Source: Candidatus Veblenbacteria bacterium
Lineage (GTDB): Bacteria > Patescibacteriota > Patescibacteriia > Veblenbacterales > UBA10138
Direction: 5' to 3'
Assembly: GCA_030700105.1 (NCBI GenBank)
Contig: JAUYKG010000016.1
Span: 2,863-66,862, forward strand
DNA length: 64,000 nucleotides
Part shown: in pieces, positions 1-62,334 of the stretch
Layout: every line of letters begins with the position of its first letter
Position numbering within the stretch: position 1 is the stretch's first letter
The notes under the pieces: model-generated
Told to the model about the DNA's origin: nothing
The model's input: the letters and a program-made list of their open reading frames with translations, nothing else
Database searches by the model: none
Program-made: the position numbers and the translations under genes

Positions 1-3000
1 CAGCCGAGACAAGTTCAGTGGTGCCAGAAGAAGCATCAGCCGATAGTCCGGCCGGAGCAGACCTGCCAGCAGTTCAAGAATCGGAGCTGCCGCTGTTCCA
101 CCTGCGCTTAGCGCTTGGTGGCACCGAATGGCAGCCCTTAGTGGATGTGCCGGTGAGCGTGGGTGCCGAATTACCCGGTGAAGTAGTTTTGCCTTTGTCG
201 GTGCTGGATAATTTGGAGGCTGTGCAGATTGCGCTGGTGGCCCCCAGGCGCGAAGAGGCGTCCATGTATGTGTATTTGGACGCACTGGCTATCGAGGTGG
301 ACTACAAAACAGATTTGTTTACTCCTTTACGGCAACTGGTCCAGCAAAACGATGCCGTGGCCACGGAGTCGTTGGAAATGCCGGCTAATCTGGTGTTTAA
401 TGTGGCAACCACTGATTTTGCCGCTGACGAGGATGTGGTTTTTGATTTGGATTATACGGTGGAACTTATGGGCTTGGGGTACGTGAGGGAGCGTAGTGCT
501 TCAGCTGAAAGCGATAACCTTGTCCCGGATTTTACGATTATTGAGGAAGAGACCACGCCAGCAACGGAGAAAGAGCAGTCTGCCGATATCGTGCCTGAAC
601 CAGGCGAGCAAACATCAAGCGAGACATCTACGAGCGAGGAGTCTACTATTCCCGAGCCCAGTGAGGCATCATCCAGCCCGGAATCTTCAGCCCCGACAGA
701 AACGCCAATCCAAATAGAGCCGCCGGTGCCAGAGGTAGTGCCTGCTCAGACGTCTGAAACTCCGCCCGCCACCATTGAACCACCAGTCCAAGAAGAGGTG
801 CCAATTTCAGTAGGCTCTAAGCCGTGGCGGTCGTTGGTCTTAATCGCTCCAGCGGCGGCGGCCGACACTAAGATTGATATCGTTTCCGCCCAGGTTACAT
901 ACCAGGGCGCGCAGCAGCCGGATCTGGTGCCGGTAATGGAAGAAGTGGGAGCGAGCCAGCGTCTAAAGCTTCCGCGCCCCAGTAACTCGTTCCGTCCCGG
1001 CGCGTACCACCTGGTCGTGGAGCTGACGGATGGGCAAACAACAGTGCAGGTGAGCCAGGATTTTACCTGGGGAGTTTTAGCTATTAACACGAATAAGTCG
1101 GTGTACCAGCCGGGTGAGACCGCGTATTTACAAATGGCGGCGTTGGATGATGCCGGACATACTTTGTGCGAGGCTAATTTACAGATCGCCATTACCTCGC
1201 CCGCAGGGGAACAAGTTACGCTACTAGTAAGCGACGGTAGCATTAGTTTAAGTCCTACCTGCGGCCCGGACAATGTAACAGATGAGCCGGATTACTTTGC
1301 TCGCTACCCGTTGGCTGAGGCGGGTACCTACCGCCTTACGCTTACCAACCTGGACACTGGGCACGGGATAACAGGCGAGGTGGAGGTATGGCAGAGCGTA
1401 CCCTATGTAGTGGAACGCGTAGGGGCTACGCGTATAAACCCTTTTAAGAGCAAGTACCGCATGACGCTTCTAGTAACCGCGCTAGACGGATTTAACGGAG
1501 AACTGCGTGAGGTGGTGCCGGAGGGTTTTGAGGTGGAAGCAGAGACTGGCGGCGAGGTGCGGGCCGGCGAGCAGGGCAGCGTGGTGGCGTGGCGTTTGGA
1601 GCTTGAGCCGGGTGAGAATGCTCAGGTGGCGTATGTATACCAAGCACCCGAGGAGTCTCCACAATTTTACCTTTTGGGCCCGGCTGAGCTGGGCGAACCA
1701 TCATTCCCCCTGGGGCAGTTCTTTGGAGTGTTTGGTGATGTGGTGTTTAATGAAACGCGGCAGTGGCAACTGGCCTCTGATGCCGCTTGGTACTCCGCCA
1801 GTTGGTCCTACCGGGTCAAAGTAACTGTGCAAAATGCCGAGGTGGATGCTGACCTGACGAATTTTCCTGTTTATGTGAACTTGGCGAACTTGCCTGCAGG
1901 ATTTCATACCAACGTCAACCAGACTGATGCCCGGGACATCAGGGTGACAAAATCCGACGGTACTACCGAGCTGGCCCGTGAAGTGGTGTTTTATACCGCC
2001 GCATCTGATACAGGCGAGCTTCATTTCCTGGCTAATTCTTTAGCTAATGCTTCTGATACAGATTTCTATATCTATTATGGAAATGCGGGAGCTTCAGATT
2101 ATGGAGTAACTGATACCTATGGCAGGAATGCCGTATGGGCGGGATATGTGGGAGTTTTTCATTTTAACGAATCATCTGGCGGAGCGGGAGCAATCATAGA
2201 TTCCAGTGGTACAGGGAATGATGCGACTGATACAAATAGTCCGACGTTCGCACAAGCGGGTCAATTAGGAAAATCTATTTATTTCAATGGTGGTACAACA
2301 TTTCCATATATCCGAATAGGAAGCACAAGTCTTTCTTTAACAGATTTCACCATATCTTCTTGGATGAAGTTGATGACTGGCACCACAGAGAATAACGAGA
2401 TGCTTGATTATATAGCTGGAACTGCACCTGACCGTATTCTTATCCGTCCAATAGCAGAATATTTAAAAGTCAACGGAACAACAAAACAAGGAGTCGTAAC
2501 CGCAGACAATAGAGATGCGTGGCATTATTTTGCTTTAACGAAAAACAATTCAACCCCCCTCGCAGAGTATTTCAGGGATGCAATATCAGTAACGACTTTT
2601 GCTTTTACTGCGGGAGCTTCAGATTATGCAGCAACATACGCTGGGGCAAGGTCGTACCACTCTATTTTTTATGAAGATGAGCTTCGTATTAGAACAACGG
2701 TATCGTCAGACGAATGGCTCGCCGCTGAATATTCAAACCAAAACACGCCCACAACATTTTATGCGGTGGGGGCGGAGGAGACCCCCCTCCGCGTCCAAGG
2801 CGTGGTCTATATGGCCAATGAGAGCACCTTGGGTACTTCAGGCAATAGCGGCCCTTGTGATGGCAGTACCGCGGTCATCTCCATACGCATCAATGGGGGT
2901 ACCGCAGCCACGGGCTCGTGTAACGCTACCACGGCAGCCTTTGACATTACCGCTGTTTCAGCCGCCGCTTCCGGCGACACCATCACCGTCTACCTCACCT

Positions 3001-6000
3001 CCACCATGAAAGCCAACACGGTCTATGTCTCGGACGGCAACGCTGATACGGGCATAGACCTGTACGAGAACACGCTCGTGGTGGGGCACGTGAACGCTGG
3101 CCCTGCTACCATTCTCGACCTCCTTGACTACGACAGTACGACCAATAACACTGATATGCTGTTTGACGCCGTGGACGCCACCCCCGACACCTTAACTGTG
3201 GAAGACGGGGTAGAGCTCCACGTACGCACCGCAGAAACCCTGACCCCTGGGGGCACCGTCACCACCTCGTCCTCCTCAAATGGTGCTGATACCAATAAAG
3301 ACGGGGATATCCACATAGATGGCACGGGTACCCTTAGTATGGGTACTAACACCCTCTCGGTCGGTGGGGACTTTAACAATGAAGGCACTTTTTCTAAATC
3401 AACCGGCCAAACCACCACCTTCACCGCTGCCGCCACTGGCCACACTATTACGGACGGGGGAGAGAACTTTGACTCCGTCGCCTTTAACGGTTCGGGCGGT
3501 CCCTGGTACTCCTCCTCCTGGCCCTATCGCGTTAAGGTAACCATTCAAAACACCGAGGTTGACGCTGATCTAACGAGCTTCCCGGTCTACGTCAACCTAG
3601 CCAATTTACCAGCTGGTTTCCACACCAACGTCAACCAAACAGACGCGCGGGACATCAGGGTCACCAAAGCCGACGGCACCACGGAACTGGCCCGAGAAGT
3701 CATGTTCTATACCGCCGCTTCGGACACGGGAGAACTACACTTTCTCGCCGACGCTCTTTCCAATGCCTCTGATACCGATTTCTATATCTACTATGGCAAT
3801 GCGGCTGCGTCTGACTATGCCGTTACGGATACCTATGGCAGAAATGCGGTGTGGGGAGATTACGAAGGTGTTTGGCATTTGAACGAAGCAAGTTCAACCA
3901 GAGTAGATTCCAGCGGGAACGGGAATGATATGACCGATAACAATACCGTTTTATCAGCCGCTGGAAAGCTGGCTGGAAACGGAGCAGATTTTGAAACTTC
4001 CGTCCCAGAATATCTTTCCCGAACCGATGCTAATTTGAGCGCAGGATTTCCTGGTAAAAACGGTACTACACCAGCGGCACTCACTGTTTCTTGGTGGTTC
4101 AAACTGGAATCTTTCGTTACGACAAATGTGATGAATATGATTGCCAAGAATGCCACTACGGAAAATCCATATTTTGGGTATGTATATCCTACAGCTGGGA
4201 ATGATTTTCGGGCACAATTAAGTACTACCATTGCCTCGGCTGCCGATTCTGTGACTTCGGCTGGTGTATGGTATAGAGGAGCTTTGGTATGGGATGGAGC
4301 AGATGCTCAAACTTATATAGACGGCGTGGCAAGCGGTTCATCTGTTTCGGTTTCGTCTGTTCCAACAAATACAGGAAGCCTTTGGTTTGGAACAAGAGGA
4401 AGCTTAGGCACAACCCGTTCTATGGATGGCGTCATTGATGAGATTCGTATCCAAGTCATTGACCGCTCTGCCGACTGGGAAGCCGCCGAATACAGCAACC
4501 AGAGTGCCTCAGCCACGTTTTACAGCGTAGGGGAACAGGAAGGGGCCTGGTATAATGCCAGTTGGGATTATCGGGTAAAAGTAACCATTCAAAATGGTGA
4601 GGTGGACGCCGATCTCACCAGCTTCCCGGTTTACGTCAACCTAGCCAATTTACCAGCTGGTTTCCACACCAACGTCAACCAAACAGACGCGCGGGACATC
4701 GGGGTCACCAAAGCCGACGGCACCACGGAACTGGCCCGTGAAGTCGTGTTCTATACCGCCGCCTCTGATACGGGTGAGCTCCACTTCCTGGCTGACTCCC
4801 TGTCTAATACTGTTGATACTGATTTCTACATCTATTACGGCAACGCCGCTGCCTCTGACTATGCCGTTACCGATACCTATGGCAGAAATGCGGTGTGGGC
4901 AAATCATCTTGCAGTTTATCACTTGGCTGATACCCCAACGGGAAGCGCGGGAGACATAACCGACTCATCGGGGAATGGGAAGCATATGACCTCTGTCAAT
5001 ATGGACAGTGGGAATGTGGTGGCTGGGGCTTGGGGCACTGCTTTGGCCTTTAACGGTACAGACGAGTATGCGCTTATTGCAGAGGCACTTAACGCCACAC
5101 TTCCCGCATCGGTCACTGCAATTGTTAAGCCAACGGATGTTGGGGCAGCAACGGAACGATACTTTTTCTCAACTGCGAAGTCAACCGATGACCTTAACGA
5201 ACAAGTTGCAGGTATAAGGAATACCGATACATATATAACACTCACAAGAGGAGGAGCCCCCAGTGCAGTTGCGGAATCAACGATAGATATGACAGACGAC
5301 GCATATGCTCACGTGGCAAGCGTTTGGACTTCAGCAACGAGCAGAGCGGCATATCTTGATGGTGCAAATAAGGGGACAAACACCACATCAAAAACCGCTG
5401 CTGGGCTTGATAGGAGTGCGATTGGCGTTCGTGCGCGGTCTTCACTTGGAGCATATTGGGAGGGAGAGATTGATGAAATTCGTCTTTACGACGGAACATT
5501 GTCTGACCAATGGATAGCTGCCGAGGCCAGCAACCAGAACACGCCTACTACTTTCTACAGTGTGGGGTCAGTCGATGGTTCTAGCGGTGGCTGGTCCTTT
5601 GCTGACAGCACCACTATAGACGTGGACCTTACCCTGACCGCCGGTACCCTCTCCGGCACCCAAGACCTCACCGTGAACGGAGGAGACGTTACTGGCGACG
5701 GGGACATTAACCTTACTGGTGGTACCTTCCTCTTAGATGGAGCCTCTACCACTGGTTTTGGTGGCGCTACCGCCTGGGACTTTAACAACCTTACCCTGGG
5801 GGATGGTACGGGTACTACGACCACGACCGCAATAGGAGCGGGCGGTGTGACGGTGGCTGCTACGCTCACTATTGCTGCTAACCAAACGCTTGATATGAAC
5901 ACGAACGATCCGCCTCTGGATGTGAATGGTGCTGTTTCCATTAGTGGTACTCTCACTGCTTCGCAAACCGCCGTTTTCTCCGTGGCAGGGGACTTTACCA

Positions 6001-6854
6001 ACAACGGCACCTTCAATAACTCCTCGGGCACCGTTACCTTTGACGGTGCTGGCACCAGTACATTCAACGGTTCCAGCGCTCCGGCCATTACTTTCCACCA
6101 CTTCACCTCCACGACGGCTGGCAAGGTCCTTTCCTTTACCGAGGCCAAAACATTCCGTATTAACGGTGTTCTTACCATCCGCGGCTCCAGCGGCAACCAA
6201 ATTACCATTCGTTCCACTTCAGCCTCCAACCAGTGGCTCATTAACCACCAAGGTACGGAGAGCGTTCAGTACGCAGCCATTTATGATTCAGGGTGCGATG
6301 GCTCAAGTACCTACATTTCTCTGGACAACACCTCCAGTGACGGCGACGGTAACAACGGTACCTGCTGGCTGTTCCCCAGTTTGTCCTTCACCCTCAGCTC
6401 CACTTCAGCCAGCTTAGATTTGAACAGTGCTAATACCTTTACCACCACTGCCTCCACCACGCTCACGGTTACGGCCCGCTCGGCCTTTGGCTACCAGGGT
6501 TACGCTAAACAAACGGATAACCTGAGGCATACCGCCGACGCAGGTATCACCATAGCCGATTGGACCGGCACCAATGCTTCTCCCACGGTATTTAACGAGA
6601 CGTGCATAGCCAACGGTGCTAAGTGCGGGTGGGGGTACAACACGAACGATGCTGGCCTTACCCAGTTCGTGGATTCAACGTACTATGCCGGTTTTGTGCA
6701 GAGCACTACGGGCCCGGGCGATATCGTAGCCACGGCTTCGGGCCCAGTATCGTCCGACGCGACTATTATCACCTATCGTGCCAGCGTGGCTATGACGCAG
6801 GCCGCCGGGCCGTACCAAACAACGGTGGTTTATATAGTTACACCGCAATTCTAG
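1..6854 (+). CDS. Giant secreted/surface protein, 5'-truncated (>2278 aa here). It has three DUF2341-like + LamG-like modules, beta-helix-like G/T-rich repeats, and a conserved C-terminal domain shared with the 8477..9751 product.
   Basis: The ORF at 18..6854 has a reading frame that stays open to the window edge, so the true start is probably upstream. A ~120-aa module appears three times: 'SWxYRVKVT(I/V)QNxEVDADLTxFPVYVNLANLPAGFHTNVNQTDARDI(R/G)VTKxDGTTELAREVxFYTAASDTGELHFL...DTDFYIYYGNA'. Each copy is followed by a LamG/ConA-like segment ending 'DEIRI/ELRI...W(L/I)AAEYSNQ'. The C-terminus 'YRASVAMTQAAGPYQTTVVYIVTPQF' matches the C-terminus of the 424-aa neighbour. Confidence 0.8.
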   Translation, partial: AETSSVVPEEASADSPAGADLPAVQESELPLFHLRLALGGTEWQPLVDVPVSVGAELPGEVVLPLSVLDNLEAVQIALVAPRREEASMYVYLDALAIEVDYKTDLFTPLRQLVQQNDAVATESLEMPANLVFNVATTDFAADEDVVFDLDYTVELMGLGYVRERSASAESDNLVPDFTIIEEETTPATEKEQSADIVPEPGEQTSSETSTSEESTIPEPSEASSSPESSAPTETPIQIEPPVPEVVPAQTSETPPATIEPPVQEEVPISVGSKPWRSLVLIAPAAAADTKIDIVSAQVTYQGAQQPDLVPVMEEVGASQRLKLPRPSNSFRPGAYHLVVELTDGQTTVQVSQDFTWGVLAINTNKSVYQPGETAYLQMAALDDAGHTLCEANLQIAITSPAGEQVTLLVSDGSISLSPTCGPDNVTDEPDYFARYPLAEAGTYRLTLTNLDTGHGITGEVEVWQSVPYVVERVGATRINPFKSKYRMTLLVTALDGFNGELREVVPEGFEVEAETGGEVRAGEQGSVVAWRLELEPGENAQVAYVYQAPEESPQFYLLGPAELGEPSFPLGQFFGVFGDVVFNETRQWQLASDAAWYSASWSYRVKVTVQNAEVDADLTNFPVYVNLANLPAGFHTNVNQTDARDIRVTKSDGTTELAREVVFYTAASDTGELHFLANSLANASDTDFYIYYGNAGASDYGVTDTYGRNAVWAGYVGVFHFNESSGGAGAIIDSSGTGNDATDTNSPTFAQAGQLGKSIYFNGGTTFPYIRIGSTSLSLTDFTISSWMKLMTGTTENNEMLDYIAGTAPDRILIRPIAEYLKVNGTTKQGVVTADNRDAWHYFALTKNNSTPLAEYFRDAISVTTFAFTAGASDYAATYAGARSYHSIFYEDELRIRTTVSSDEWLAAEYSNQNTPTTFYAVGAEETPLRVQGVVYMANESTLGTSGNSGPCDGSTAVISIRINGGTAATGSCNATTAAFDITAVSAAASGDTITVYLTSTMKANTVYVSDGNADTGIDLYENTLVVGHVNAGPATILDLLDYDSTTNNTDMLFDAVDATPDTLTVEDGVELHVRTAETLTPGGTVTTSSSSNGADTNKDGDIHIDGTGTLSMGTNTLSVGGDFNNEGTFSKSTGQTTTFTAAATGHTITDGGENFDSVAFNGSGGPWYSSSWPYRVKVTIQNTEVDADLTSFPVYVNLANLPAGFHTNVNQTDARDIRVTKADGTTELAREVMFYTAASDTGELHFLADALSNASDTDFYIYYGNAAASDYAVTDTYGRNAVWGDYEGVWHLNEASSTRVDSSGNGNDMTDNNTVLSAAGKLAGNGADFETSVPEYLSRTDANLSAGFPGKNGTTPAALTVSWWFKLESFVTTNVMNMIAKNATTENPYFGYVYPTAGNDFRAQLSTTIASAADSVTSAGVWYRGALVWDGADAQTYIDGVASGSSVSVSSVPTNTGSLWFGTRGSLGTTRSMDGVIDEIRIQVIDRSADWEAAEYSNQSASATFYSVGEQEGAWYNASWDYRVKVTIQNGEVDADLTSFPVYVNLANLPAGFHTNVNQTDARDIGVTKADGTTELAREVVFYTAASDTGELHFLADSLSNTVDTDFYIYYGNAAASDYAVTDTYGRNAVWANHLAVYHLADTPTGSAGDITDSSGNGKHMTSVNMDSGNVVAGAWGTALAFNGTDEYALIAEALNATLPASVTAIVKPTDVGAATERYFFSTAKSTDDLNEQVAGIRNTDTYITLTRGGAPSAVAESTIDMTDDAYAHVASVWTSATSRAAYLDGANKGTNTTSKTAAGLDRSAIGVRARSSLGAYWEGEIDEIRLYDGTLSDQWIAAEASNQNTPTTFYSVGSVDGSSGGWSFADSTTIDVDLTLTAGTLSGTQDLTVNGGDVTGDGDINLTGGTFLLDGASTTGFGGATAWDFNNLTLGDGTGTTTTTAIGAGGVTVAATLTIAANQTLDMNTNDPPLDVNGAVSISGTLTASQTAVFSVAGDFTNNGTFNNSSGTVTFDGAGTSTFNGSSAPAITFHHFTSTTAGKVLSFTEAKTFRINGVLTIRGSSGNQITIRSTSASNQWLINHQGTESVQYAAIYDSGCDGSSTYISLDNTSSDGDGNNGTCWLFPSLSFTLSSTSASLDLNSANTFTTTASTTLTVTARSAFGYQGYAKQTDNLRHTADAGITIADWTGTNASPTVFNETCIANGAKCGWGYNTNDAGLTQFVDSTYYAGFVQSTTGPGDIVATASGPVSSDATIITYRASVAMTQAAGPYQTTVVYIVTPQF
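1790..2150 (+). repeat. Intragenic module repeat copy 1 (DUF2341-like), the most diverged copy.
   Basis: A DNA/protein repeat of the module also found at 3500..3880 and 4550..4925. Confidence 0.7.
3500..3880 (+). repeat. Intragenic module repeat copy 2.
   Basis: Positions 3591..3694 match 4635..4738 over 104 nt with one mismatch. Confidence 0.8.
4550..4925 (+). repeat. Intragenic module repeat copy 3.
   Basis: Near-identical to copy 2 over long stretches. Confidence 0.8.
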
Positions 6855-6860
6855 GAAAAG

Positions 6861-6910
6861 CAGTATAAAAACAGTATACAGTATTAAGTATTCAGTATTT
6901 AGTATTTGGT
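6861..6910 (+). repeat. Tandem short repeats of (C)AGTAT(T/A) immediately upstream of the four-helix-bundle gene.
   Basis: cAGTATaaaaacAGTATacAGTATtaAGTATtcAGTATttAGTATttgGTATg: seven units. Confidence 0.6.
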
Positions 6911-11848: not shown

Positions 11849-11854
11849 GGGAGT

Positions 11855-11889
11855 GAGTATTAAGAATTCAGTATACAGTATTCAGTATG
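11855..11889 (+). repeat. Tandem AGTAT repeats upstream of the first cohesin-like gene.
   Basis: gAGTATtaagaattcAGTATacAGTATtcAGTATg. Confidence 0.55.
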
Positions 11890-13125: not shown

Positions 13126-15218
13126 TATCGTTGTCGTCATTTTTTATATCGCCGCTACGTTCGGCTGGTATTACCCCTACCTTGAGGGTAGGGGTGTGCG
13201 TTATCACTTTACTGGCAGTGTGGTTGGGCTGGGTAAGGGGTGCTGAGGCTGCCAGCTTGCACCTCTCGCCGGTAACCGGCAGTTTTGAGGTGGATGCTAC
13301 GTTCGATGTCGGCGTGTATCTAGATACCGAGGGACAGGCGGTGAACGCCGTGGCTGTAAATCTGGCCTTCCCGCCCGATAAGTTACAGCTCGTTTCACCA
13401 GTGGTGGCTGGGCAATCGATTGTGGAGGTGTGGAGTGCTCAGCCGAGGTTTTCTAACCAGGATGGTTTGGTGGAATTGGCCGGTGGTATTCCTGGCGGTA
13501 TCACCACCAGTCGCGGCCTCATTACTACCTTGCATTTCCGGGTGCGCTCCGTGGGCACGGCCTTAGTGAGGTACCAGGATTCCTCGCAGGTGCTCTTACA
13601 TGACGGCAAGGGAACCAACGCGCTCTACGATACATCGAGCGGAATTTTTGAACTTACCTTGCCAGCACCGGCCGGTCCCGAGGTGGTATCTGTTACGCAT
13701 CCTGACCAAGCCAAATGGTACCCAAGCTCCAACGTGAGTTTGGGCTGGGAAGGGGAAGCTGAGGTAGAGGGGTATAGCTACCTGTTGTCTGATAAACCTA
13801 TTGACCTGGTGGACGACATAGCAGAGGGCAAGCAGGTGTCGGTGGTGTACGAGAACGTGGCCGATGGTGTGCACTATTTCCACATTAAGAGCCTGCGCAA
13901 AGGCAAGTGGGGCGGGGTTACCCACCGCGCTATTAAGGTAGACAGCACTCCGCCGGCTGATTTTCCCATAGACATCGTGCCGGCAGCGCGCACTATTAGG
14001 CGCCAGCCTATCATTCAGTTTAGTACCACGGATTCCGGTTCCGGCCTTTCTCACTACGAGGTGAAGCTCGTACTCTTGCACTCCAATGAGGCGCAAGCGG
14101 CCGAGAATAGCTCTTTTGAATCGATTTTCGTGGAAACGCAGAGCCCATACCTGCCGCCCGAACTTAAACTGGGGAAATACGACGTTATTATACGGGCTTA
14201 CGATCAGGCTGGCAGTTTTCGTGAGGTAACACAGCGTTTAAGCATCGTGAAGGCAATTTTTACCGTGGTGGGGGAGCGGGGGCTGGATGTGCGCAACGCT
14301 TTTGTTATCCCCTGGGTGTGGGTGTGGGTAATCGGTCTGGTTTTGGTGGCGGGGGTTGCTTACCTCGCTTGGTGGGTACGGCGTTGGCATTACCGCGTTG
14401 AACAGCGCAAGCTTCATGAGGAGCTGCCTAACACCTTGCAAACGCAACTACAAGAACTGCGTGAGTACCGCAAGAAGTATGGACGACTAGCAGGCCTGGT
14501 GTTGGCTCTGCTGGCGGTCTCTTGGTTGTGGTTGGGCGCTCTGCCGGTGCAAGCTCAGGAGACACCGTTAGCACCGCCCTACATTACTACTGTGTCGCGG
14601 GATATTTCCAACGAGGACATTTTTTACCTTGGTGGTCGGACTGAGTCTGTCAATACCGAGGTTGTTATCTACCTCCAGCACCCTGCTAGCGGGCGCACGG
14701 AAGGGTTCAGTGTTACTTCTGATAAGCGCGGCGAGTGGTTTTATCGGCACCACACTTTCCTACCCAGCGGTCGGTACGTACTGTGGTCGCAGGCTCGCGT
14801 AGGCGAGCAGCTTAGCCCGCCTGGGCCGCAGGTTGAGCTTATGGTGCACAATACGGCCGTACAGTTCGGTTCATCCCGTTTATCTTACGAGGTTATCTAC
14901 TTGGGCATTATTATCCTCTTGGCCGCTCTGTTCCTGGGCCTGGTGGCGTACACGGCTTTCCACTTCGTTCATGGCCGCCGTAAGCACGCAGCGCTCATAA
15001 AAGAGATACGCGAGGCCGAGGAATCGGTGCGTCGCGGTTTCGCTGTACTGAAGCGCGATATCCAGGCCGAGCTTAATGTGGTGAGGAAGGCGAAACTATC
15101 CAAACAACTTTCCGCCGAAGAGCACGCTCGTGAGGCCGAACTTATGAAAGATTTGGACTGGGTGGAAAAGTATATCGGCAAAGAGGTGTGGGATGTGGAG
15201 CAAGCGGAACAGTCATAA
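13122..15218 (+). CDS. Polytopic membrane protein (698 aa) with an N-terminal cohesin-like domain, FN3/Ig-like domains, three TM segments and a C-terminal charged coiled-coil tail.
   Basis: ATGA overlap with the upstream gene. Cohesin-like block 'LHLSPVTGSFEVDATFDVGVYLDTEGQAVNAVAVNLAFPPDKLQLVSPVVAGQSIVEVW...LVELAGGIPGGITTSRGLITTLHFRVRSVGTALV'. TM segments 'VIPWVWVWVIGLVLVAGVAYLAWWV', 'LAGLVLALLAVSWLWLGAL' and 'GIIILLAALFLGLVAYTAF'. A C-terminal 'EIREAEESVRR...' helix follows. Confidence 0.55.
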   Translation: MISLSSFFISPLRSAGITPTLRVGVCVITLLAVWLGWVRGAEAASLHLSPVTGSFEVDATFDVGVYLDTEGQAVNAVAVNLAFPPDKLQLVSPVVAGQSIVEVWSAQPRFSNQDGLVELAGGIPGGITTSRGLITTLHFRVRSVGTALVRYQDSSQVLLHDGKGTNALYDTSSGIFELTLPAPAGPEVVSVTHPDQAKWYPSSNVSLGWEGEAEVEGYSYLLSDKPIDLVDDIAEGKQVSVVYENVADGVHYFHIKSLRKGKWGGVTHRAIKVDSTPPADFPIDIVPAARTIRRQPIIQFSTTDSGSGLSHYEVKLVLLHSNEAQAAENSSFESIFVETQSPYLPPELKLGKYDVIIRAYDQAGSFREVTQRLSIVKAIFTVVGERGLDVRNAFVIPWVWVWVIGLVLVAGVAYLAWWVRRWHYRVEQRKLHEELPNTLQTQLQELREYRKKYGRLAGLVLALLAVSWLWLGALPVQAQETPLAPPYITTVSRDISNEDIFYLGGRTESVNTEVVIYLQHPASGRTEGFSVTSDKRGEWFYRHHTFLPSGRYVLWSQARVGEQLSPPGPQVELMVHNTAVQFGSSRLSYEVIYLGIIILLAALFLGLVAYTAFHFVHGRRKHAALIKEIREAEESVRRGFAVLKRDIQAELNVVRKAKLSKQLSAEEHAREAELMKDLDWVEKYIGKEVWDVEQAEQS

Positions 15219-26141: not shown

Positions 26142-26146
26142 GGCTT

Positions 26147-26437
26147 ATGTTCTTTGAGCTTAAATCAATTCTCCAGCGCCGCCTCCGGCAACAAGGGATA
26201 GGGCAGGCGGTGGCCGCGGAACAAGCTACCACTGCTTTCCGTGCTCTGGTGGCGGAACGGTTCGGGGCATCCGCCGCTGCGGGTTTGCGCCAGGTGGCGC
26301 TGAGGGGTGACACCATTGAGATAAGTGCTGGTTCAGGAGCCTTGGCGGCTGAACTGCGGATACGGGAAAGTGAGTTTTCTCAAGCACTTGCAACCAAGCT
26401 TGATGGTGTGGTTTACCGATTAAAAGTTTTTGCCTAA
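26147..26437 (+). CDS. DUF721 (DciA-like) small protein.
   Basis: ~96 aa with 'LRQVALRGDTIEISAGSGALAAELRIRESEFSQALATKL', which resembles the DUF721 pattern. Start taken at 'MFFELKS'. Confidence 0.4.
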   Translation: MFFELKSILQRRLRQQGIGQAVAAEQATTAFRALVAERFGASAAAGLRQVALRGDTIEISAGSGALAAELRIRESEFSQALATKLDGVVYRLKVFA

Positions 26438-26553
26438 GGTTAGCCAATTATTTAAGGTATTTCCGGAGTTTATCTTACTTGCCTAAATAGGGTAAATTTG
26501 CTACAATTTAATGGTAAGGGTGACCTTAGTTTTTCTTTTGTCTTAGCCAAATT

Positions 26554-32482: not shown

Positions 32483-34444
32483 ATGAAGACTACATTCAAT
32501 AAACCACCAGGTGAGGTGGAGGAACTTGACATTACACTCATTCGTGCCACCAACTACACAGATGATGGGTATCCAATACGTACGCGCAAGGGAGTTATCC
32601 GCAGTAATACGTTGACTCAAATGGCCACTTTGGTGCGTGATTTGCCTAGGTATCCTTTTTTTAAGGATTTAAGTATTAAAGTAAATCTTATTGACGAAGC
32701 TGTTCAGCTTGTACCCCTGAAGAGGATATTAAAACGGTCTCGGGTAAAGGGCGTAAAGGTTATAGTTCTAATGGTTGGTGTGCAGACCTGCCAGTACCCA
32801 AGGGCCTTGGATATCGCAAATTGGTTTCTACCACATGGCATCCCGGTTCTTATTGGTGGTTTCCACGTGAGTGGGATGCTGAGCATGATTGGCCAAACCA
32901 AAGATCTTACGGCGGCCATGGATAAGGGTGTAATTCTCGTTGCTGGTGAGGTTGAGGGTGATAGGCTACCCACGATTATAGAAGAGGTTGTGCTCGGTAG
33001 AGCCCGAAAACTCTATAATTATTTGAACCCGACGCCGGATCTCACCGATTTGCCAGTGCCTTTACTAACTCGGGAAGATTTAAAGCATTTTGCTTCGCCT
33101 TTCAGCACCATTGATAGCGGGCGCGGCTGTGTGTACACATGTAAGTTCTGTACCATTATAAACGTGCAGGGCAAAATCATGCGATATAGGGAACCAGCAC
33201 AGATAAAGGAGTTTGTTCGTCAGAACTATCATTCTACAGGGATTAGTCATTGTTTCTTTACGGATGATAATATGGCGCGCAATCCACGCTGCCGTGAGCT
33301 TTTTGGAGAGCTGGCTGAACTACGCGAGGAAGAGGGTATTCCCTTTACTTTTATGATGCAGGCGGACTTGGCAGCCAGAAGGATTAAGCCGGGTAATTTT
33401 TTTGAGCTAGCGGCCAGAGCCGGATGTAACCAAGTCTTTTTGGGCCTTGAGACCATGAATCCGCTTAACCTGAGAGCCGAAAGTAAATACCAGAATCGGG
33501 TAGGTGATTACGCTGATTTGGTCCAGCACTGTAATTCGTTGGGTATAACCTGCCATGCGGGCTACATTATTGGTTTTGAGTTTGATACCAGGGATAGTAT
33601 CCGTGAGGACATTGAGAAGTTAAAGGGGATTGGTTTTAATTCAGCTTCCTTTTACATTATTACACCTTTACCGGGGTCCGAGGATCACCAAACTTGGTAC
33701 CGGGAAGGCAAATGGATGCACCCTGATTTCAATACTTACGATTCCAATCATGTCGCAGTTCTGCCCAAAAGCATGTCGGTAGAAGAATTAGCACAAACTC
33801 ACCAGGATGTTTGGGAGTGGTTCTATACCACCGAACATATGGCCAGTGTGCTCAAGGGTTGGCGCGAAAATAATAAACACTATTGGGGACAGTTGTTTTT
33901 TTACGCCTGGTATTTGTACGCCTCGCGAATTGAGCGACTTCATCCTATGAACTGCGGTTTCTGGACCGTGCGGCAGCGCAAGGGGCGCCGCCCAGGCTTC
34001 CCCAGAGAAGCGTTCATACCTTTCTGGTGGGGGAGGGCAGTGGCTGCTGGGCAGCGTCTGAGTGGGCTTGTGAAGCTATTCTTCCAGTTGGAAGAGGTGT
34101 GGCTCCGCAGCAGACCAGAAAGCAAGGCGGAGCAAGCTCTCCATGAATTAATGGTTAATACCAGGAAAGATTTTGCTGATTGGCGAGATGTCACGATCGG
34201 TGAGCTAGCTGCGTTATACCGTAAGTTACACGCGGACATGCCAGACGTAAGGATTCCGTCAGGTGTAAGCTTGTGGTTAAAAAAACATATTGCCTGGGCT
34301 CATTCAAGAATGCATGCTGATTATATATGGCGTCATTGGTATAAACACTTCTGGAACCCATTTAGTTGGATGGAAGTCTGGCTGTTTGAAATCATTAATG
34401 GCTCACGCTTCCTCCTTCGGTTATTAACCGAAGGAACCAGATAA
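32483..34444 (+). CDS. B12-binding-domain radical SAM protein (class B rSAM) with a W/R-rich C-terminal extension.
   Basis: N-terminal Rossmann-like cobalamin-binding region ('VKVIVLMVGVQTCQ...IPVLIGGFHVS') and an rSAM cluster 'GRGCVYTCKFC' (CxxxCxxC). A ~250-aa C-terminal extension is rich in W and R. GC content and codon usage are lower than in the neighbouring genes. Confidence 0.7.
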   Translation: MKTTFNKPPGEVEELDITLIRATNYTDDGYPIRTRKGVIRSNTLTQMATLVRDLPRYPFFKDLSIKVNLIDEAVQLVPLKRILKRSRVKGVKVIVLMVGVQTCQYPRALDIANWFLPHGIPVLIGGFHVSGMLSMIGQTKDLTAAMDKGVILVAGEVEGDRLPTIIEEVVLGRARKLYNYLNPTPDLTDLPVPLLTREDLKHFASPFSTIDSGRGCVYTCKFCTIINVQGKIMRYREPAQIKEFVRQNYHSTGISHCFFTDDNMARNPRCRELFGELAELREEEGIPFTFMMQADLAARRIKPGNFFELAARAGCNQVFLGLETMNPLNLRAESKYQNRVGDYADLVQHCNSLGITCHAGYIIGFEFDTRDSIREDIEKLKGIGFNSASFYIITPLPGSEDHQTWYREGKWMHPDFNTYDSNHVAVLPKSMSVEELAQTHQDVWEWFYTTEHMASVLKGWRENNKHYWGQLFFYAWYLYASRIERLHPMNCGFWTVRQRKGRRPGFPREAFIPFWWGRAVAAGQRLSGLVKLFFQLEEVWLRSRPESKAEQALHELMVNTRKDFADWRDVTIGELAALYRKLHADMPDVRIPSGVSLWLKKHIAWAHSRMHADYIWRHWYKHFWNPFSWMEVWLFEIINGSRFLLRLLTEGTR

Positions 34445-34450
34445 TTCAAA

Positions 34451-34492
34451 GGCCTCGTCTATGAAATTAGACGAGGCCGATTTATTGATTAT
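34451..34492 (+). terminator. Intrinsic terminator after the radical SAM gene.
   Basis: A perfect 10-bp stem (GGCCTCGTCT / AGACGAGGCC) with an 8-nt loop, followed by GATTTATTGATTATTTATT. Confidence 0.65.
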
Positions 34493-34677
34493 TTATTAAC
34501 CCTTGCCAGGGCTGGCGGGGCGTGGTAGTATAGCGTTGTCAGTCAGAAAAGGCCCCCGAGGGCCTTTTAAAAGAGGCCATTTTAAGCAACTAGTAGTTAG
34601 CCAATAGCAAGGGTTTTTAATCATTGCTTAGCTATGAAACACTAGTGGCGAGTGGCTAGGAACTAATCACTACCCTT

Positions 34678-34869
34678 ATGGCAAATCCGTTAGTTACCTA
34701 CTTCAAAGGGGCTTTTGAAGAGCTTAAGAAAGTGGTGTGGCCTACCAAGCGCGAAATCCTCCAGCACACGCTGGTGGTGGTTGGGTTGTCATTGGCTCTA
34801 GCCATTTTTTTGGGCGCCGTAGACTATCTTCTAAACATGGGACTGGAGCAGCTTTTGCTTAGTCGGTAA
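34678..34869 (+). CDS. secE: Preprotein translocase subunit SecE.
   Basis: 63 aa with 'ELKKVVWPTKREILQHTLVVVGLSLALAIFLGAVD'. It sits directly upstream of nusG. Confidence 0.85.
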   Translation: MANPLVTYFKGAFEELKKVVWPTKREILQHTLVVVGLSLALAIFLGAVDYLLNMGLEQLLLSR

Positions 34870-34875
34870 GCGCGT

Positions 34876-35421
34876 ATGTCACGACAGATTACTCAGCAGA
34901 GCAGGCGGTGGTACGCCATTCATACCTATTCAGGCTACGAGGAGAACGTGTCTCGTAACCTCAGGCAGCGTATAGAGAGCATGGATATGGCAGACAAAAT
35001 TTTTAACGTACTCATTCCCACTGAAAAGAAGATCCGCATCAAGAATGGGAAGCGCAAGGTAATAGAGGAAAAGATATTTCCCGGTTACGTGCTGGTGGAA
35101 ATGCTGGTAACCGACGACAGTTGGTACGTGGTTCGTAACACCCCCAACGTTACCGGGTTCATTGGCACCGGCACTACGCCTACGCCGATCGCCGAAGGTG
35201 AAATTAAGGAGCTGCAGAAGCGCATGGGCATTCAGGAGCCCAAGTACCAAATCGACGTTACGCCCGGCACGCCAGTTAAGATTATCGACGGCCCGTTCAA
35301 GGACTTTGAAGGCAAGGTGGCCGAGGTGGACGAGGCCCGGGGCAAGATTAAGGCACTGGTTTCCATGTTCGGCCGCGAAACGCCTGTTGAGCTCGATAGT
35401 TTGCAAATCCAGAAGCTCTAA
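34876..35421 (+). CDS. nusG: Transcription termination/antitermination factor NusG.
   Basis: NGN domain 'WYAIHTYSGYEENV' and KOW 'GTPVKIIDGPFKDFEGKVAEVDEARGKIKALVSMFGRETPVEL'. Confidence 0.9.
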   Translation: MSRQITQQSRRWYAIHTYSGYEENVSRNLRQRIESMDMADKIFNVLIPTEKKIRIKNGKRKVIEEKIFPGYVLVEMLVTDDSWYVVRNTPNVTGFIGTGTTPTPIAEGEIKELQKRMGIQEPKYQIDVTPGTPVKIIDGPFKDFEGKVAEVDEARGKIKALVSMFGRETPVELDSLQIQKL

Positions 35422-44407: not shown

Positions 44408-44794
44408 ATGAATAAAAAAACAAGTATCCTTTTGGTTGATAGTGAGGAATGCATTAGATCAGTGTATTCTGAGCTGTTGAAAGACGCCGGCTTTGAGGTT
44501 CAAACTGCGGTCAGCGGTAGAGATGTTCTACATAATTTTACTGAGCCATACCCTGATATGGTAATAACCGATGTTATTAATCCGGATATGAATGGTCTCT
44601 ACTTTGCTGGAGCACTTAGAAAGCTGAGGTATACAGGATTAATAATTATTTTTTCAGGGGAAGAAAAAGAAGAGCTCGTTGATTTGAGCAAAAAGCTAGG
44701 CATTAACGTTAGCGCAGTCTTTGAAAAGACTGCAGATATCAATAAAATGATAAAAGAAATTGTAAACTTGGCGCAGGTAGAACAACCTGCTTAA
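44408..44794 (+). CDS. Single-domain response regulator (CheY-like receiver), orphan.
   Basis: 128 aa with 'ILLVDSEE', the phospho-acceptor region 'MVITDVINPDMNG', and 'IIIFSGEE'. No output domain and no adjacent histidine kinase. GC content is much lower than in the neighbouring genes. Confidence 0.65.
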   Translation: MNKKTSILLVDSEECIRSVYSELLKDAGFEVQTAVSGRDVLHNFTEPYPDMVITDVINPDMNGLYFAGALRKLRYTGLIIIFSGEEKEELVDLSKKLGINVSAVFEKTADINKMIKEIVNLAQVEQPA

Positions 44795-44807
44795 ATAAGG
44801 ATTATAT

Positions 44808-44850
44808 GCCGTCGGTCATTTATAATAATGGCTGACGGTAATTTTTTTTT
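44808..44850. terminator. Bidirectional terminator between the response-regulator gene and thrS.
   Basis: An imperfect stem (TGCCGTC...GACGGTA) followed by a run of nine T. Confidence 0.45.
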
Positions 44851-51527: not shown

Positions 51528-51752
51528 ACTTTGGTGCGGCCGATGAATGAACACTTGCCCTGCACTGACGGAGCGTGGTGAAGTTTGGTTCGGATTGTAG
51601 GTGTGTGAATTTCGGCATAGGTACTGCGACCCAATTGTACCACAATGGTGCTACAATTGAGCCGCTCATGAATGTATGGCGTGGTTGGTTAGGTAGGTAC
51701 GAAAGAAGCCCCGCTGGGGCTTCTTTCAAGTTAAGACATCCAGGCGCTCCCC

Positions 51753-52046
51753 TTACTTCTTTTTCCGGCTACCGTTGGCGCGCTTGTTGATGAGATACTG
51801 CACCAACTCCTTGGCGCCAGTGGCCAGAATTGAAAGGTAGGAAGTAGAGCTTTCTAATTTTGCCTTGGCTACGTTTACAAAGTCGCCTACTTTGCGCATA
51901 CTCTCCTCAACCCCTTCCAGAATTTTTACCACGCGGCGGACGATGAGTAGAAAGTAGACTAGCATCCACCCCATGAGAAAGGCTAGGCCAAAAATCGAAA
52001 CGGCTAAGGAGAGGTTGAGAATGTCTTTACTGGTTTCTAGGTACAT
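51753..52046 (-). CDS. Small membrane protein (hypothetical, DUF948-like architecture).
   Basis: 97 aa with an N-terminal TM 'LAVSIFGLAFLMGWMLVYFLLIV', then a helical segment and a basic tail. Confidence 0.4.
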   Translation of the reverse strand: MYLETSKDILNLSLAVSIFGLAFLMGWMLVYFLLIVRRVVKILEGVEESMRKVGDFVNVAKAKLESSTSYLSILATGAKELVQYLINKRANGSRKKK

Positions 52047-52233
52047 ATGGTAGGCGGGTTAAGGATGTTCTTAAGTATACCATTAGCCGTGGCTCCAGGG
52101 GAGGGGAGTGTGGTAGAATGGGGAAAGTTAAGGGTGAAGAGTTAAGGGTAAGAGGTTGGTCCGGGTGGTTATTTTCTAATCCGAGCTTTAGCCTGGTAGC
52201 TCTTACTCTACGCTCTTACTCTAAACTTTTTCT

Positions 52234-55350: not shown

Positions 55351-55377
55351 ACATTTTTACCAAGCAAGTAATAAAAT

Positions 55378-55416
55378 AAGCCGGCTCTGTGAGTACAACA
55401 GACCGGCTTATTTAGT
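55378..55416. terminator. Intrinsic (bidirectional) terminator after rplY.
   Basis: Stem AAGCCGGCTCTG / CAGACCGGCTT followed by ATTTAGTTT. Confidence 0.55.
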
Positions 55417-55439
55417 TTACGGAGAACATAGGCTCACCT

Positions 55440-55727
55440 TTAGTTTATGGGTTGGGTAAATATAGTTTTTTTAGTGTTAGTCTGGCCGTTAGCCAGCTCC
55501 CATGAGTTCTTACTGGTAATTATTATCTCACCATTAGTCGTAGAGAGTTTAACTGCAGGTTCACCCCCGTTAAGTATTAGTTCCAGGCTGATGATTTCAA
55601 CAGCCATTTTTTGGTGGCAGTTCTGCAAAATTGCCCGAAGGGGAAAGTTTTCGACATTTTGTCCGTACTCTTTCACCACATATTCCCACTGACTATAGAC
55701 ATCCGCAAACATATCTAGCTTTTTCAT
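55440..55727 (-). CDS. Hypothetical small protein (95 aa, low GC).
   Basis: The ORF has an AT-rich upstream region. No recognisable motif. Confidence 0.35.
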   Translation of the reverse strand: MKKLDMFADVYSQWEYVVKEYGQNVENFPLRAILQNCHQKMAVEIISLELILNGGEPAVKLSTTNGEIIITSKNSWELANGQTNTKKTIFTQPIN

Positions 55728-55898
55728 TAGGTTCTCCTTTTAAGGAATTTTGTTTGTTTTATAGCCTCAACCCGAGGCTTATACCAGTGTACTTGAAAAT
55801 TTACTAGGCGTAGCGTGGATAAGCTGTGTATTTTACTGGATTAGGCTAAAAATAGCGCCGCATAAGCGTCGCCTTATGAATTAATTGAAGACGATTGT

Positions 55899-58247: not shown

Positions 58248-58934
58248 ATGATTGATCGTTTAGTTATCATTTTGGTGCCGCCGTTGCTATATATTGCCCG
58301 ACGCATGGTGGTGTGGGGAAAGTACAAACGCCAGGGCGCTGTGGTGCCTTGTCGTAATTTCCCTATTAAGGGCTTATCGGGGTTATCGCTTAAGGACAGC
58401 AAAGACCCTGATGCTTGGCGCATTTTGCTTTACTCCGTTCTGAGTTACTTTTATGTAACTCAAGGGAATGGAGTATCAACCATCGCCTTCGTTGGACTTA
58501 TATTCTACTTCGTCGGCTGGTTGGTCGCCTCTTGGGGGCGTGTAAGCTTAGGAGTTTCCTGGGCTGATATTATGGAAGAAACTATCAGTCCGATGCCGCT
58601 AGTAAATAGTGGCGCTTACCGCTATAGTCGTAATCCTATTTATCTGGGGTTGAGCATCATCTCAGTAGCCGAAGGGGTAATTTTTAGTTCCGATTTACAC
58701 AATCGGCTTATTGGAGAAAATCTCACGATTATTGGTATTCTATATGGACTCTCCTACGTTTTATACTGGGTGTCTGTTTACTATCTATTAAGAGACTACC
58801 ACCATGAAGCGATAGCTGAGGAGTACATACTCCAGAGGCGTTACGGTACCCATTACTTGAGGTATTTGGAATGCGTGCCGCGCTACCTTTTATCTACACC
58901 AAAAAGAAGTGCCGCAAAAGATATAGCTACCTAA
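58248..58934 (+). CDS. Membrane methyltransferase-family protein (ICMT/PEMT-like).
   Basis: Polytopic protein with 'GAYRYSRNPIYLGLSI' (an RHPxY-like motif) and a C-terminal 'EEYILQRRYGTHYLRY'. Confidence 0.45.
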   Translation: MIDRLVIILVPPLLYIARRMVVWGKYKRQGAVVPCRNFPIKGLSGLSLKDSKDPDAWRILLYSVLSYFYVTQGNGVSTIAFVGLIFYFVGWLVASWGRVSLGVSWADIMEETISPMPLVNSGAYRYSRNPIYLGLSIISVAEGVIFSSDLHNRLIGENLTIIGILYGLSYVLYWVSVYYLLRDYHHEAIAEEYILQRRYGTHYLRYLECVPRYLLSTPKRSAAKDIAT

Positions 58935-61205: not shown

Positions 61206-61305
61206 GGCTCTTTAGTTAGTGTCATTTTACCAATGACGCTTCGCCGCCAGATGAGGTGGCAATAGAGTAAAAGATAACGATGAAAGCAATAAGATACGCA
61301 TGATT

Positions 61306-61345
61306 GGTGGGTTGGGTTTGAAATATAGCCCAACCGCCTTTTTAT
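61306..61345 (+). terminator. Intrinsic terminator after pyrH.
   Basis: Stem GGTGGGTTGGG / CCCAACCGCC followed by TTTTTATTTT. Confidence 0.55.
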
Positions 61346-62249
61346 TTTCTGTGGATTATTAAACCTACCTTGGCTAGGGTTAGCCTTTATAAATAACTTT
61401 AATTTTGCACAGTTTATTCACGTTACCATCGCTTGACCCCGCTGACGCTAGTACGTAGAATGAACCTTACCGTCGTTTGGCACCTTTACTCCAATAGGTC
61501 GGTGGTCTAGAAAACCATCACTAAGTGGCAGTCTAAAAAACTGTCAAATAGGTTAGATGAGCTGGTTCAGCTGATCGTAACGCCCAATTGGGTACTTGGC
61601 GCCGACGACATACGGCAAAAAGCAAAAATGCTATATGAGCCGTGTTTGATAAGGAGGGGGTGAACACCTTCCCAGACTTAAGTGATCCGTTAGGATCGCA
61701 ATTAAAAAACCGTCATTCGCACCTTCCCAGGAGCAACTCAATAGAAGATTAAGAGTCTCTAAGCGCCCGCGCAGAGACTAGTTCTCTCCATGAGTTAGGC
61801 GTCGCGAATACGCCACGCATTGGCTTTAGCGAAAGCTTTCAACCAAAGCAACTCCATGGTAATCTTTACCAACACCACATAAGATGGTTTGTCCAGAGGC
61901 CCCGAGGGGTCTTAATCTACCTAAGGTGGATACAAGTACAGCGTGTTGCGATGCGCTGACACAGGTTTGGACAGTGGTCCATTTTGATGATTTTCCACCG
62001 TTGGTGGGTTCTCTTCGCGAGATCATCATCTGAAATGGATGTAAAGAAAGGTTTTCCCAGCCTGAAAAACTGGGATAAAAATTCGTTTGACAGCAGGTCA
62101 GTCCACTCCCTACTTCAGGGGGAAACAAATAACGTGTCAATAAAATGGCACAGTAAGGTTACTCCGAGTTTGGAGAAAGGATTGTATCCTGCTTCAAGCG
62201 GATTAAAAGAAATATTTAAAGAACGCTTCGTGTTGTTGAAGTGGTACGT

Positions 62250-62283
62250 AAGGCTCCCATTAATGGTGAGCCTTGTTTTTTTT
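62250..62283 (+). terminator. Strong hairpin with a T9 tract (intrinsic terminator) inside the pyrH–gap noncoding gap.
   Basis: AAGGCTCCCAT-TA-ATGGTGAGCCTT, an ~10-bp stem with a 1-nt bulge, followed by GTTTTTTTTT. Confidence 0.5.
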
Positions 62284-62334
62284 ATCCCGTTTTCGCGCTA
62301 TACTGATTAGTGCTGAATATTAGCCTTTAGTTCT

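Follow-up and report, generated by a model that had tools for sequence, protein, structure and literature searches.

A putative structured non-coding RNA gene in the spacer between pyrH and gapA of a Candidatus Veblenbacteria genome

The 64,000-nt stretch of Candidatus Veblenbacteria DNA analysed here (hereafter the window) contains a spacer of 1,129 nt (61206-62334) between pyrH, which ends at 61205, and gapA (341 aa), which starts at 62335, and comparison of this spacer with related loci suggests that it probably holds a real, selected gene for a structured non-coding RNA (ncRNA). The GC content of the spacer was 0.44 compared to ~0.50-0.58 for the flanking genes, and the only open reading frames (ORFs) of at least 100 aa were two that overlap each other (61826..62140 on the minus strand, 104 aa; 61984..62310 on the plus strand, 108 aa), in agreement with the initial annotation of the region as an ORF-poor, AT-richer gap of 1.1 kb. 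The longest open stretch comprised 116 codons, a length that was not unusual against dinucleotide shuffles (P = 0.13). The window GAPDH was 100% identical to a protein from a Candidatus Veblenbacteria metagenome-assembled genome, with the next relatives 72-82% identical; a look-up of the exact window GAPDH gave no entry on record. The gene order prfA-rpmE (minus strand), rpsB-tsf-pyrH, variable spacer, gapA-pgk-eno was found at the compared loci L001, L081, L082, L083, L164, L165, L166 and L185 (L-numbers are labels of loci other than the window), with the spacer ranging from 150 nt (L165) up to ~2.7 kb (L081). A pyrH scan of the genome collection returned only two relatives from the Candidate Phyla Radiation (CPR), the remainder being Proteobacteria and others, and a metagenome scan with a GAPDH sub-alignment returned distant GAPDHs (≤62% identity) and zero close relatives.

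The rpsB-tsf-pyrH operon was closed by an intrinsic terminator that the terminator scan placed at 61310..61345 on the plus strand (GGTTGGG...CCCAACC followed by a T-run), marking the upstream boundary of the RNA unit. This was followed by a conserved control region (61350..61411, plus strand) consisting of TGTGGATTA (61350-61358), which is an inverted DnaA-box-like motif, TTGGCTAGGGTTAGCC (61370-61385), which is a palindrome, and TTTTGCACA (61403-61411). The gaps between them measure ~11 nt (TGTGGATTA to TTGGCTAGGGTTAGCC) and ~17 nt (TTGGCTAGGGTTAGCC to TTTTGCACA), the three together form a large imperfect palindrome, and the order of the elements was repeated in L181, L185 and L082. The relaxed DnaA consensus TTWTNCACA was matched exactly at 61403-61411 and, inverted and with one mismatch, at 61350-61358; TTATCCACA was present exactly in L164 and L001, and the whole window has 8 TTWTNCACA boxes compared to 3.8 expected. 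The CACA at the end of TTTTGCACA (61408-61411) lies exactly 21 nt upstream of the -35 hexamer described below, and the CACA-N21-TTGACC spacing was identical in six genomes. In its layout the control region resembles a putative operator for a dimeric or tetrameric DNA-binding protein, with outer boxes that resemble DnaA boxes. The idea of a replication origin, raised by the DnaA-like boxes, was dropped, there being only two boxes and no GC-skew turn.

Downstream of the control region a sigma-70-type promoter (TTGACC-17-TAGAAT; 61433..61461, plus strand) was detected by the promoter scan with 10 of 12 matches, the -35 TTGACC at 61433-61438 and the -10 TAGAAT at 61456-61461; TTGACC and a TAnnnT -10 aligned across six genomes. 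Transcription would start at ~61467-61469, and the 5' end of the RNA, ACCTTACCGTCG, was conserved. The composite pattern xCACA-N21-TTGACC-N16-18-TAnnnT-N3-10-TTACCG occurred exactly 6 times in 1.55 Mb scanned on both strands, every time on the plus strand and in the pyrH-gapA spacer (window, L081, L082, L164, L181, L185), and two pattern scans of viral contigs returned chance matches only. The predicted RNA extends over ~61468-62283 of the plus strand (~816 nt) and ends at an intrinsic terminator (62250..62283, plus strand) made up of AAGGCTCCCA-TTAA-TGGTGAGCCTT, a G and T8, the hairpin of which was present in the minimum free energy (MFE) fold. Its stem is 11 bp with one bulge at 62250-62274, followed by the G and T8 to 62283, and it was because of this bulge that the consensus scanner missed it. 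Both terminators, and the passage of the plus-strand ORF (the 108-aa ORF) through the strong hairpin and T-tract of the second, had been read in the same way in the initial annotation. In the relatives the unit measured ~190 nt (L083), 450 (L181), 500 (L082), 570 (L185), 600 (L164) and 860 (L081), and every homologous unit closes with a comparable terminator.

Behind this terminator lies a TATACT box (62299..62304, plus strand; 30 nt before the gapA ATG at 62335), the -10 box of a promoter that would belong to gapA itself. TATACT was found at the same place before gapA in the window, L001, L081, L082, L083, L164, L166, L168, L181 and L182, and a TATAAT-type box was found there in L165 and L185. 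In nearly all relatives the TATACT box stands 30-45 nt upstream of gapA, with the -35 position inside the T-tract of the preceding terminator, so that the tail of this terminator seems to serve also as the upstream portion of the gapA promoter. The position of the box after the terminator indicates that the RNA is not a gapA leader and that the upstream unit stands alone. Two marks of an independent unit, a positionally conserved -35/-10 pair with 16-18 nt spacing and a 3' GC-rich hairpin followed by a T-tract, were both found in the sequence. In L081 the GAPDH gene call (6001-7215; P0006, 404 aa) begins ~55 codons too early, crossing the upstream RNA terminator and the TATACT box, and its true start is probably the ATG at ~6167 (MKKKLVSRAK...).

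The plus strand of 61346-62290 had an MFE of -320.9 kcal/mol (z = -7.45 against shuffles) and the minus strand a z of -5.76. When the window was divided into 212 tiles of 300 nt with 20 shuffles each (background z -0.64 ± 1.48), the three spacer tiles had z-scores of -5.07, -3.09 and -3.64, ranking 4th, 14th and 8th. The RNA can be described in three parts. The 5' domain (61468..61680, plus strand), matched to L164 by nhmmer, begins with the ACCTTACCGTCG 5' end and has a multi-branch fold containing tandem hairpins with CTAGAAA (61501-61519) and CTAAAAA (61527-61545) loops and a GGAGGG/CCTTCC hairpin that buries a Shine-Dalgarno (SD)-like AAGGAGG; RNAalifold of the window and L164 5' domains gave 43 pairs, 9 of them changed on both sides, with the tandem hairpins and the AAGGAGG hairpin included. 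The central region (61681..62077, plus strand) is genome-specific and contains many short hairpins (tile z -3.1 and -3.6), among them a third A-rich-loop hairpin at 62056-62074 with a CTGAAAAA loop. Hairpins of this type, with 5-6-bp stems and A-rich loops (CUAGAAA, CUAAAAA, CCUGAAAAA), were observed three times in the window RNA and twice in L164 (~3029-3052, 3058-3078); their stems differ by compensatory changes and the motif is absent from L181 and L185.

The conserved 3' domain (62078..62209, plus strand) is closed by helix H1 (62080-62097 with 62188-62204), which comprises 17 bp with one bulged C and several G-U pairs, and is extended by the 6-bp helix H2 (62099-62104 with 62179-62184) and capped by three hairpins, Ha (62106-62122), Hb (62134-62151) and Hc (62162-62175), all on the plus strand. 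A closing helix equivalent to H1 was present in the MFE fold of six of six homologous domains, each folded alone. For the 22 H1/H2 pairs in a four-sequence alignment (A6), 88% of cells were paired compared to 27-43% when the 3' partner was slid by 1-3 columns; 5 of the 22 pairs were changed on both sides, and the observed values were reached in only 6-11 of 500 shuffles. Ha was kept in place with a different sequence (CUCCCU/AGGGGG in the window, GCCG/CGGC in L185), and the same was true of Hb (GUGUC/GGCAC in the window, CUGG/CCAG in L181, GUGCUGG/CCAGUAC in L185). Of the 81 pairs that RNAalifold gave for L181 and L185, 11 had changed on both sides. A covariance model built for the 3' domain scored 128 bits on the plus strand compared to 18 bits on the minus strand, and this difference, the G-U pairs of H1 and the orientation of the promoter and terminator together assign the RNA to the plus strand. 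A helix closing the 5' and 3' parts of the RNA (61463-61473 with 62150-62160) was considered and dropped, its pairing not being kept in L181, L164 or L082.

Similarity between the spacers was not detected by blastn, and large indels made a global MAFFT alignment of whole units uninformative; homology was later found with nhmmer profile searches. The promoter and 5' domain (61399-61671) matched L164 2924-3195 (E 1e-11 to 1e-13) and the 3' domain (62066-62216) matched L181 (E 2e-11), the 3' domain being homologous to L181, L185 and L083. L181 and L185 matched each other over the entire RNA (E 1e-48; 74% identity over aligned RNA columns), and L082 and L164 have a common central domain (E 4e-13), with zero nhmmer homologues for the central region of the window (61681-62077). 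This piecewise homology indicates a modular RNA. The 4-fold degenerate sites of gapA were 26-35% identical between the window and its relatives, so neutral sites are saturated, and identity in the 3' domain (56-73%, with 64-78% in the helix arms) lies above this level, which points to non-coding sequence under purifying selection. L165 (150-nt spacer) lacks the RNA, and the short spacer RNAs of L166 and L168 had no detectable homology to it; since some relatives lack it, the RNA would be accessory or dispensable. The covariance model, run over 1.55 Mb of loci, found no further members except a weak match in L082 and, in the loci compared, no convincing member outside the clade; the family appears to be confined to a narrow clade.

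Several points weigh against reading the spacer as an ncRNA gene. Only six homologous units were recovered and their homology is piecewise, no relative matches the window RNA from end to end, and its central 400 nt are unique to the window genome. The covariation rests on 2-4 sequences per helix, which is supportive rather than formal proof, and the structures derived from RNAalifold and the MFE are biased towards finding pairs. Other window tiles, some of them coding, also have z < -4.4, so the fold z-score alone is only suggestive, and the promoter, start site and RNA ends are sequence predictions. Set beside these, the conserved promoter, purifying selection, compensatory pairs and the loss of the reading frame in relatives support the structured ncRNA ending at the T-tract that was among the candidates first proposed for this gap.

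The same transcript could be read as the messenger of one or more small proteins, with the RNA structure as its untranslated region (UTR), or as a long cis-acting leader (attenuator- or riboswitch-like) that governs read-through into gapA-pgk-eno. The possible coding sequences are the 108-aa ORF (or its sub-ORFs beginning MDVKKG... or at TTG 62181), a 49-aa ORF at 61884..62033 and a 36-aa ORF at 61642..61752 with AAGGAGG upstream. Among the relatives, the spacers of L081 and L164 share a family of real-looking mini-genes of 54/55 aa and those of L164 and L181 one of 39-41 aa, with strong SD sequences; one frame of the 3' domain stays open in the window, L185 and L083, and GGAG-rich sequence precedes some starts. 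The frame of 61642 (61642-62310, +1) has two stops only (TAA 61750, TGA ~61957) in 223 codons (P ~0.013, post hoc), a further point against a non-coding interpretation that we put down to chance or to a weak residue of former coding; codon usage in this frame was not gene-like (0.007). Codon-usage log-odds of the spacer ORFs ranged from -0.17 to 0.14 compared to 0.29 ± 0.13 for real genes and -0.16 ± 0.16 for off-frame sequence. The homologous 3' domain of L181 has stops in all three frames, and the frame in which the two conserved helix arms are read differs between the window and L185, with indels that are not multiples of 3; bases conserved in frames that differ between genomes indicate that the 3' domain is non-coding. 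AAGGAGG is itself one arm of a hairpin that shows covariation with L164, and in L164 it is not followed by a start codon. The 108-aa ORF, which crosses the terminator, had no credible homologue among 1.8 billion representative proteins, no match in a metagenome scan and no Pfam match; it matched only a 32-aa repeat in giant repeat proteins, with an E-value inflated by 11 repeat copies. The small protein suggested in the initial annotation (MDVKKGFPSL...) fared no better, with codon usage of 0.06-0.10, the stops in L181, a different frame in L185 and no credible homologues. The 49-aa ORF, called spurious, scored 0.07 for codon usage and had no homologue in the protein search, and its assignment to the IxAPLxGRV small-protein family of the relatives was rejected, the similarity being too weak and coinciding with a GCCC/GGGC hairpin. 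A small-protein messenger is very improbable. A gapA leader is also quite improbable. Its layout would be typical of attenuation leaders, with a structured domain and a terminator ~50 nt before gapA in the window, L082, L083 and L081 and a conserved position beside gapA, and it shares with such leaders and with riboswitches a folded domain with a long closing helix that immediately precedes an intrinsic terminator and, after it, a metabolic operon. It differs from them, however, in the separate gapA promoter after the terminator, conserved in the genomes examined, and in the complete units (promoter, small ORF, terminator) that stand between the RNA and gapA in three genomes (L164, L181, L185). 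L165 has the same operon yet no RNA in its spacer, no known aptamer or Rfam riboswitch was matched, and no anti-terminator pairing was noticed on reading the sequences, of which no systematic search was made.

Two further explanations concern the spacer itself. It could be a hotspot for accessory or selfish cassettes, with the RNA as cargo (antitoxin-like, defence-associated or a guide/omega-type remnant) rather than a regulatory RNA of the host. The range in spacer length, with differing combinations of self-contained mini-units from genome to genome, is what such a hotspot would produce, as is the absence of the RNA from L165 and probably from L166, and a 10-nt direct repeat, TTAGCCTTTA, flanks 61390-62319. 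This repeat is, however, at chance level (~1 expected). The unit is not adjoined by any transposase, integrase, toxin or Cas/TnpB/IscB gene, it matched neither HEARO nor any other Rfam family, and it kept its locus and orientation throughout, with no second copy in the window or in the compared flanks of the relatives. Searches for tandem and dispersed repeats in the spacer gave nothing above chance, and blastn of the spacer against phages and plasmids returned only a 45-nt chance match. Cargo of this kind is an unlikely identity for the RNA. As for the inserted element named among the initial candidates, an old insertion may have taken place, but neither a transposase nor terminal inverted repeats nor phage or plasmid similarity accompanies it. 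Least probable by far would be a decayed frr or other gene, or neutral intergenic DNA with chance hairpins. An frr had been expected here in the initial annotation, and of 80 control pyrH loci from other phyla 76 do have the gene immediately downstream (tblastn with a ribosome recycling factor (RRF) query, an E. coli sequence validated by these 76 strong matches beside pyrH); the spacer is, in addition, AT-richer than genes. The expectation does not hold for the Veblenbacteria lineage: none of L001, L081, L082, L083, L164, L165, L166 and L185 has frr after pyrH, and all have pyrH-spacer-gapA. The RRF query gave a best E of 4 across the 64-kb window, spacer included, which was also the extent of the check for frr elsewhere, and zero matches in the CPR relative loci, and six-frame translations of the spacer with stops masked matched no Pfam family at E ≤ 1, RRF (PF01765) included. 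Given the gene order of the relatives and the lack of RRF similarity, frr was never expected at this place in the lineage, and on sequence grounds the spacer is neither a lost frr nor an frr remnant, which disposes of the decayed frr once suggested. Compared to the rpsB-tsf-pyrH-frr cluster of most bacteria, the locus has rpsB, tsf and pyrH in canonical order with a terminator at the end, and differs in the variable spacer and in gapA-pgk-eno replacing frr as the next gene. Neutral DNA is further contradicted by conservation well above the saturated neutral level, by the conserved promoter composite and by the fold z of -7.45.

The preferred reading, a structured ncRNA gene, was compared with known families and systems. 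Rfam 15, which covers RNase P, tmRNA, SRP, 6S, OLE, GOLLD, ROOL, HEARO, riboswitches and group I/II introns, gave zero matches at the gathering threshold across the window and in L001/L002, no more than noise at the terminator hairpin when the spacer was searched at E ≤ 10 (P36, 24.5 bits compared to a gathering score of 36), and zero matches at E ≤ 5 inside the RNA units of L181, L185, L164, L083 and L082; ARAGORN found 0 tRNA or tmRNA genes over 64 kb. An empty Rfam scan was among the refuting outcomes named in the initial annotation, and the scan was indeed empty; the lack of a match makes the RNA an undescribed one and does not speak for its absence. An identity as RNase P, SRP or 6S, raised by short motif resemblances, was rejected on the negative Rfam result and the wrong architecture. 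A description of such an RNA in CPR bacteria did not turn up in full-text searches of the literature, and by these comparisons the RNA appears to belong to no described family. Large orphan ncRNAs of bacteria (OLE, GOLLD and ROOL) were reportedly described by Puerta-Fernandez in 2006 and Weinberg in 2009 and 2017. By kind the window RNA is closest to these three and is a member of none. It resembles them in being a stand-alone, multi-domain structured RNA of >500 nt with its own (here predicted) promoter and terminator, in its narrow phylogenetic range and in its discovery by sequence analysis without known function. It differs in having no sequence or structure match to them in Rfam 15, in a family far more variable in size (~190-860 nt) with only sub-domains conserved, in its CPR host, and in its fixed pyrH-gapA locus, which contrasts with phage/tRNA regions or the oap operon. 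A likeness to protein-sequestering small RNAs such as CsrB/RsmZ and 6S may be drawn by inference only: the predicted unit is independent, with a strong promoter and a terminator at its end, and its hairpins are repeated, three in the window having CUNRAAA(A) loops (61501-61519, 61527-61545, 62056-62074) and two more occurring in L164. In contrast to these RNAs, it has neither GGA-loop repeats nor the 6S rod with a central bubble and no Rfam CsrB or 6S match, and L181 and L185 lack the repeated loop motif.

If the spacer does encode such an RNA, transcription would start at its own near-consensus sigma-70 promoter behind the conserved control region, in which two inverted DnaA-box-like motifs surround a palindrome, and a factor binding there would set the level of the RNA. 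Transcription would stop at the T8 terminator, and gapA would then start from its own TATACT promoter. The RNA would be modular, with a 5' domain in common with one relative, a genome-specific middle and a 130-nt 3' domain in common with three relatives; this last, a long G-U-containing helix with three hairpins, would be the functional core, and the 5' and central domains would be lineage-specific expansions. The RNA might work in trans, either as a regulator or by binding protein (as a scaffold or to sequester it), although we regard this role as doubtful; neither a partner protein nor a target nor a conserved single-stranded seed was found that would speak for it. We tentatively propose, as a possibility that falls somewhat short of probable, that this is the first member seen of a hitherto undescribed class of structured RNAs, large, modular and fast-evolving and restricted to a CPR clade of Veblenbacteria and relatives, expressed under DnaA-box-like motifs and with the 130-nt domain as the core of a ribonucleoprotein.

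Other elements were observed in the spacers of the relatives. The pyrH-gapA spacer is a hypervariable hotspot (L081 3487-6166, L164 1876-4000, L181 443-2057, L001 4324-6309, L185 2558-3658, L165 3851-4000) in which the relatives carry different sets of mini-units, each with a short ORF, in many cases behind a strong SD, between a TTGAC promoter and an intrinsic terminator. The 54/55-aa protein family (L081 4912-5079, L164 2652-2816; MIHVPRSPLAGY...RARSLGKHSSGSPP and MIYIPPTH...LARSMGKHHSGHSP) has no Pfam match on record and is absent from the window. The 39-41-aa ORF family (L164 ~3680-3960, L181 1731-2010; MFFLIKAPLVGRVQPQAGEKV... and MSSLIRAPLIGRVWPQAGEKV...) has a terminator at its end, and its 3' UTR (GTCGGGAGT...GAAGAGGCCTCCCGAAAG...GCCTGCATAAGGCGCAATA) is very highly conserved (nhmmer E 1e-58 between the L164 and L181 loci) and may itself be an RNA element. 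Proteins of 127-148 aa (L081 3722-4108, L164 2071-2517, also L181 638-1021), again with no Pfam match on record, have a signal-peptide-like N-terminus (MKTLFGITLVLIVALLAASPPALA... and MKAILLIYFVLIASFVMQSANS...). In the window, the two copies of TTAGCCTTTA (61380-61389 and 62320-62329) bracket almost the whole unit in the manner of a target-site duplication, with no terminal inverted repeats seen.

Elsewhere in the window, tiles with z < -4.4 were located at 44546-44845, 11846-12145, 8546-8845, 13046-13345 and 58346-58645, mostly inside or at the ends of long ORFs. The strongest-folded tile (34346-34645; z -6.0) covers part of the intergenic region 34445-34677 that precedes secE (34678..34869) and nusG (34876..35421), and which contains a terminator, a promoter-like TTGCCA-17-TAGTAT and a short hairpin, GGCCCCCGAGGGCC, with a T-run, and has no Rfam match; the hairpin may represent an attenuator or a very small RNA. 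Several intergenic regions reach 400-660 nt (e.g., 26142-26553, 51555-52215, 55351-55898), which is long for a CPR genome, and the window also includes an ORF of 2,278 aa (18..6854).

CPR/Patescibacteria genomes are tiny and gene-dense. A selected non-coding gene of 0.8 kb is costly in such a genome and therefore probably matters to the cell, and the putative RNA gene adjoins core translation and glycolysis operons. The locus also indicates that 'missing gene' gaps deduced from canonical operon order can be lineage artefacts, frr being unlinked to pyrH here. If the RNA were ordinary lineage-specific small RNA cargo, the finding would have modest, annotation-level value. Full-text searches of the literature found no report of lineage-specific ncRNAs in CPR/Patescibacteria, and the conserved promoter, control boxes and 130-nt domain offer handles for metatranscriptomics, covariance-model searches of CPR genomes and pull-downs. 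A new clade-specific large ncRNA in genome-reduced bacteria, documented in six genomes, is plausible from these comparisons. If the new CPR class proposed above is real, it would place an orphan large ncRNA beside OLE, ROOL and GOLLD in ultra-small symbiotic bacteria in which non-coding space is scarce.

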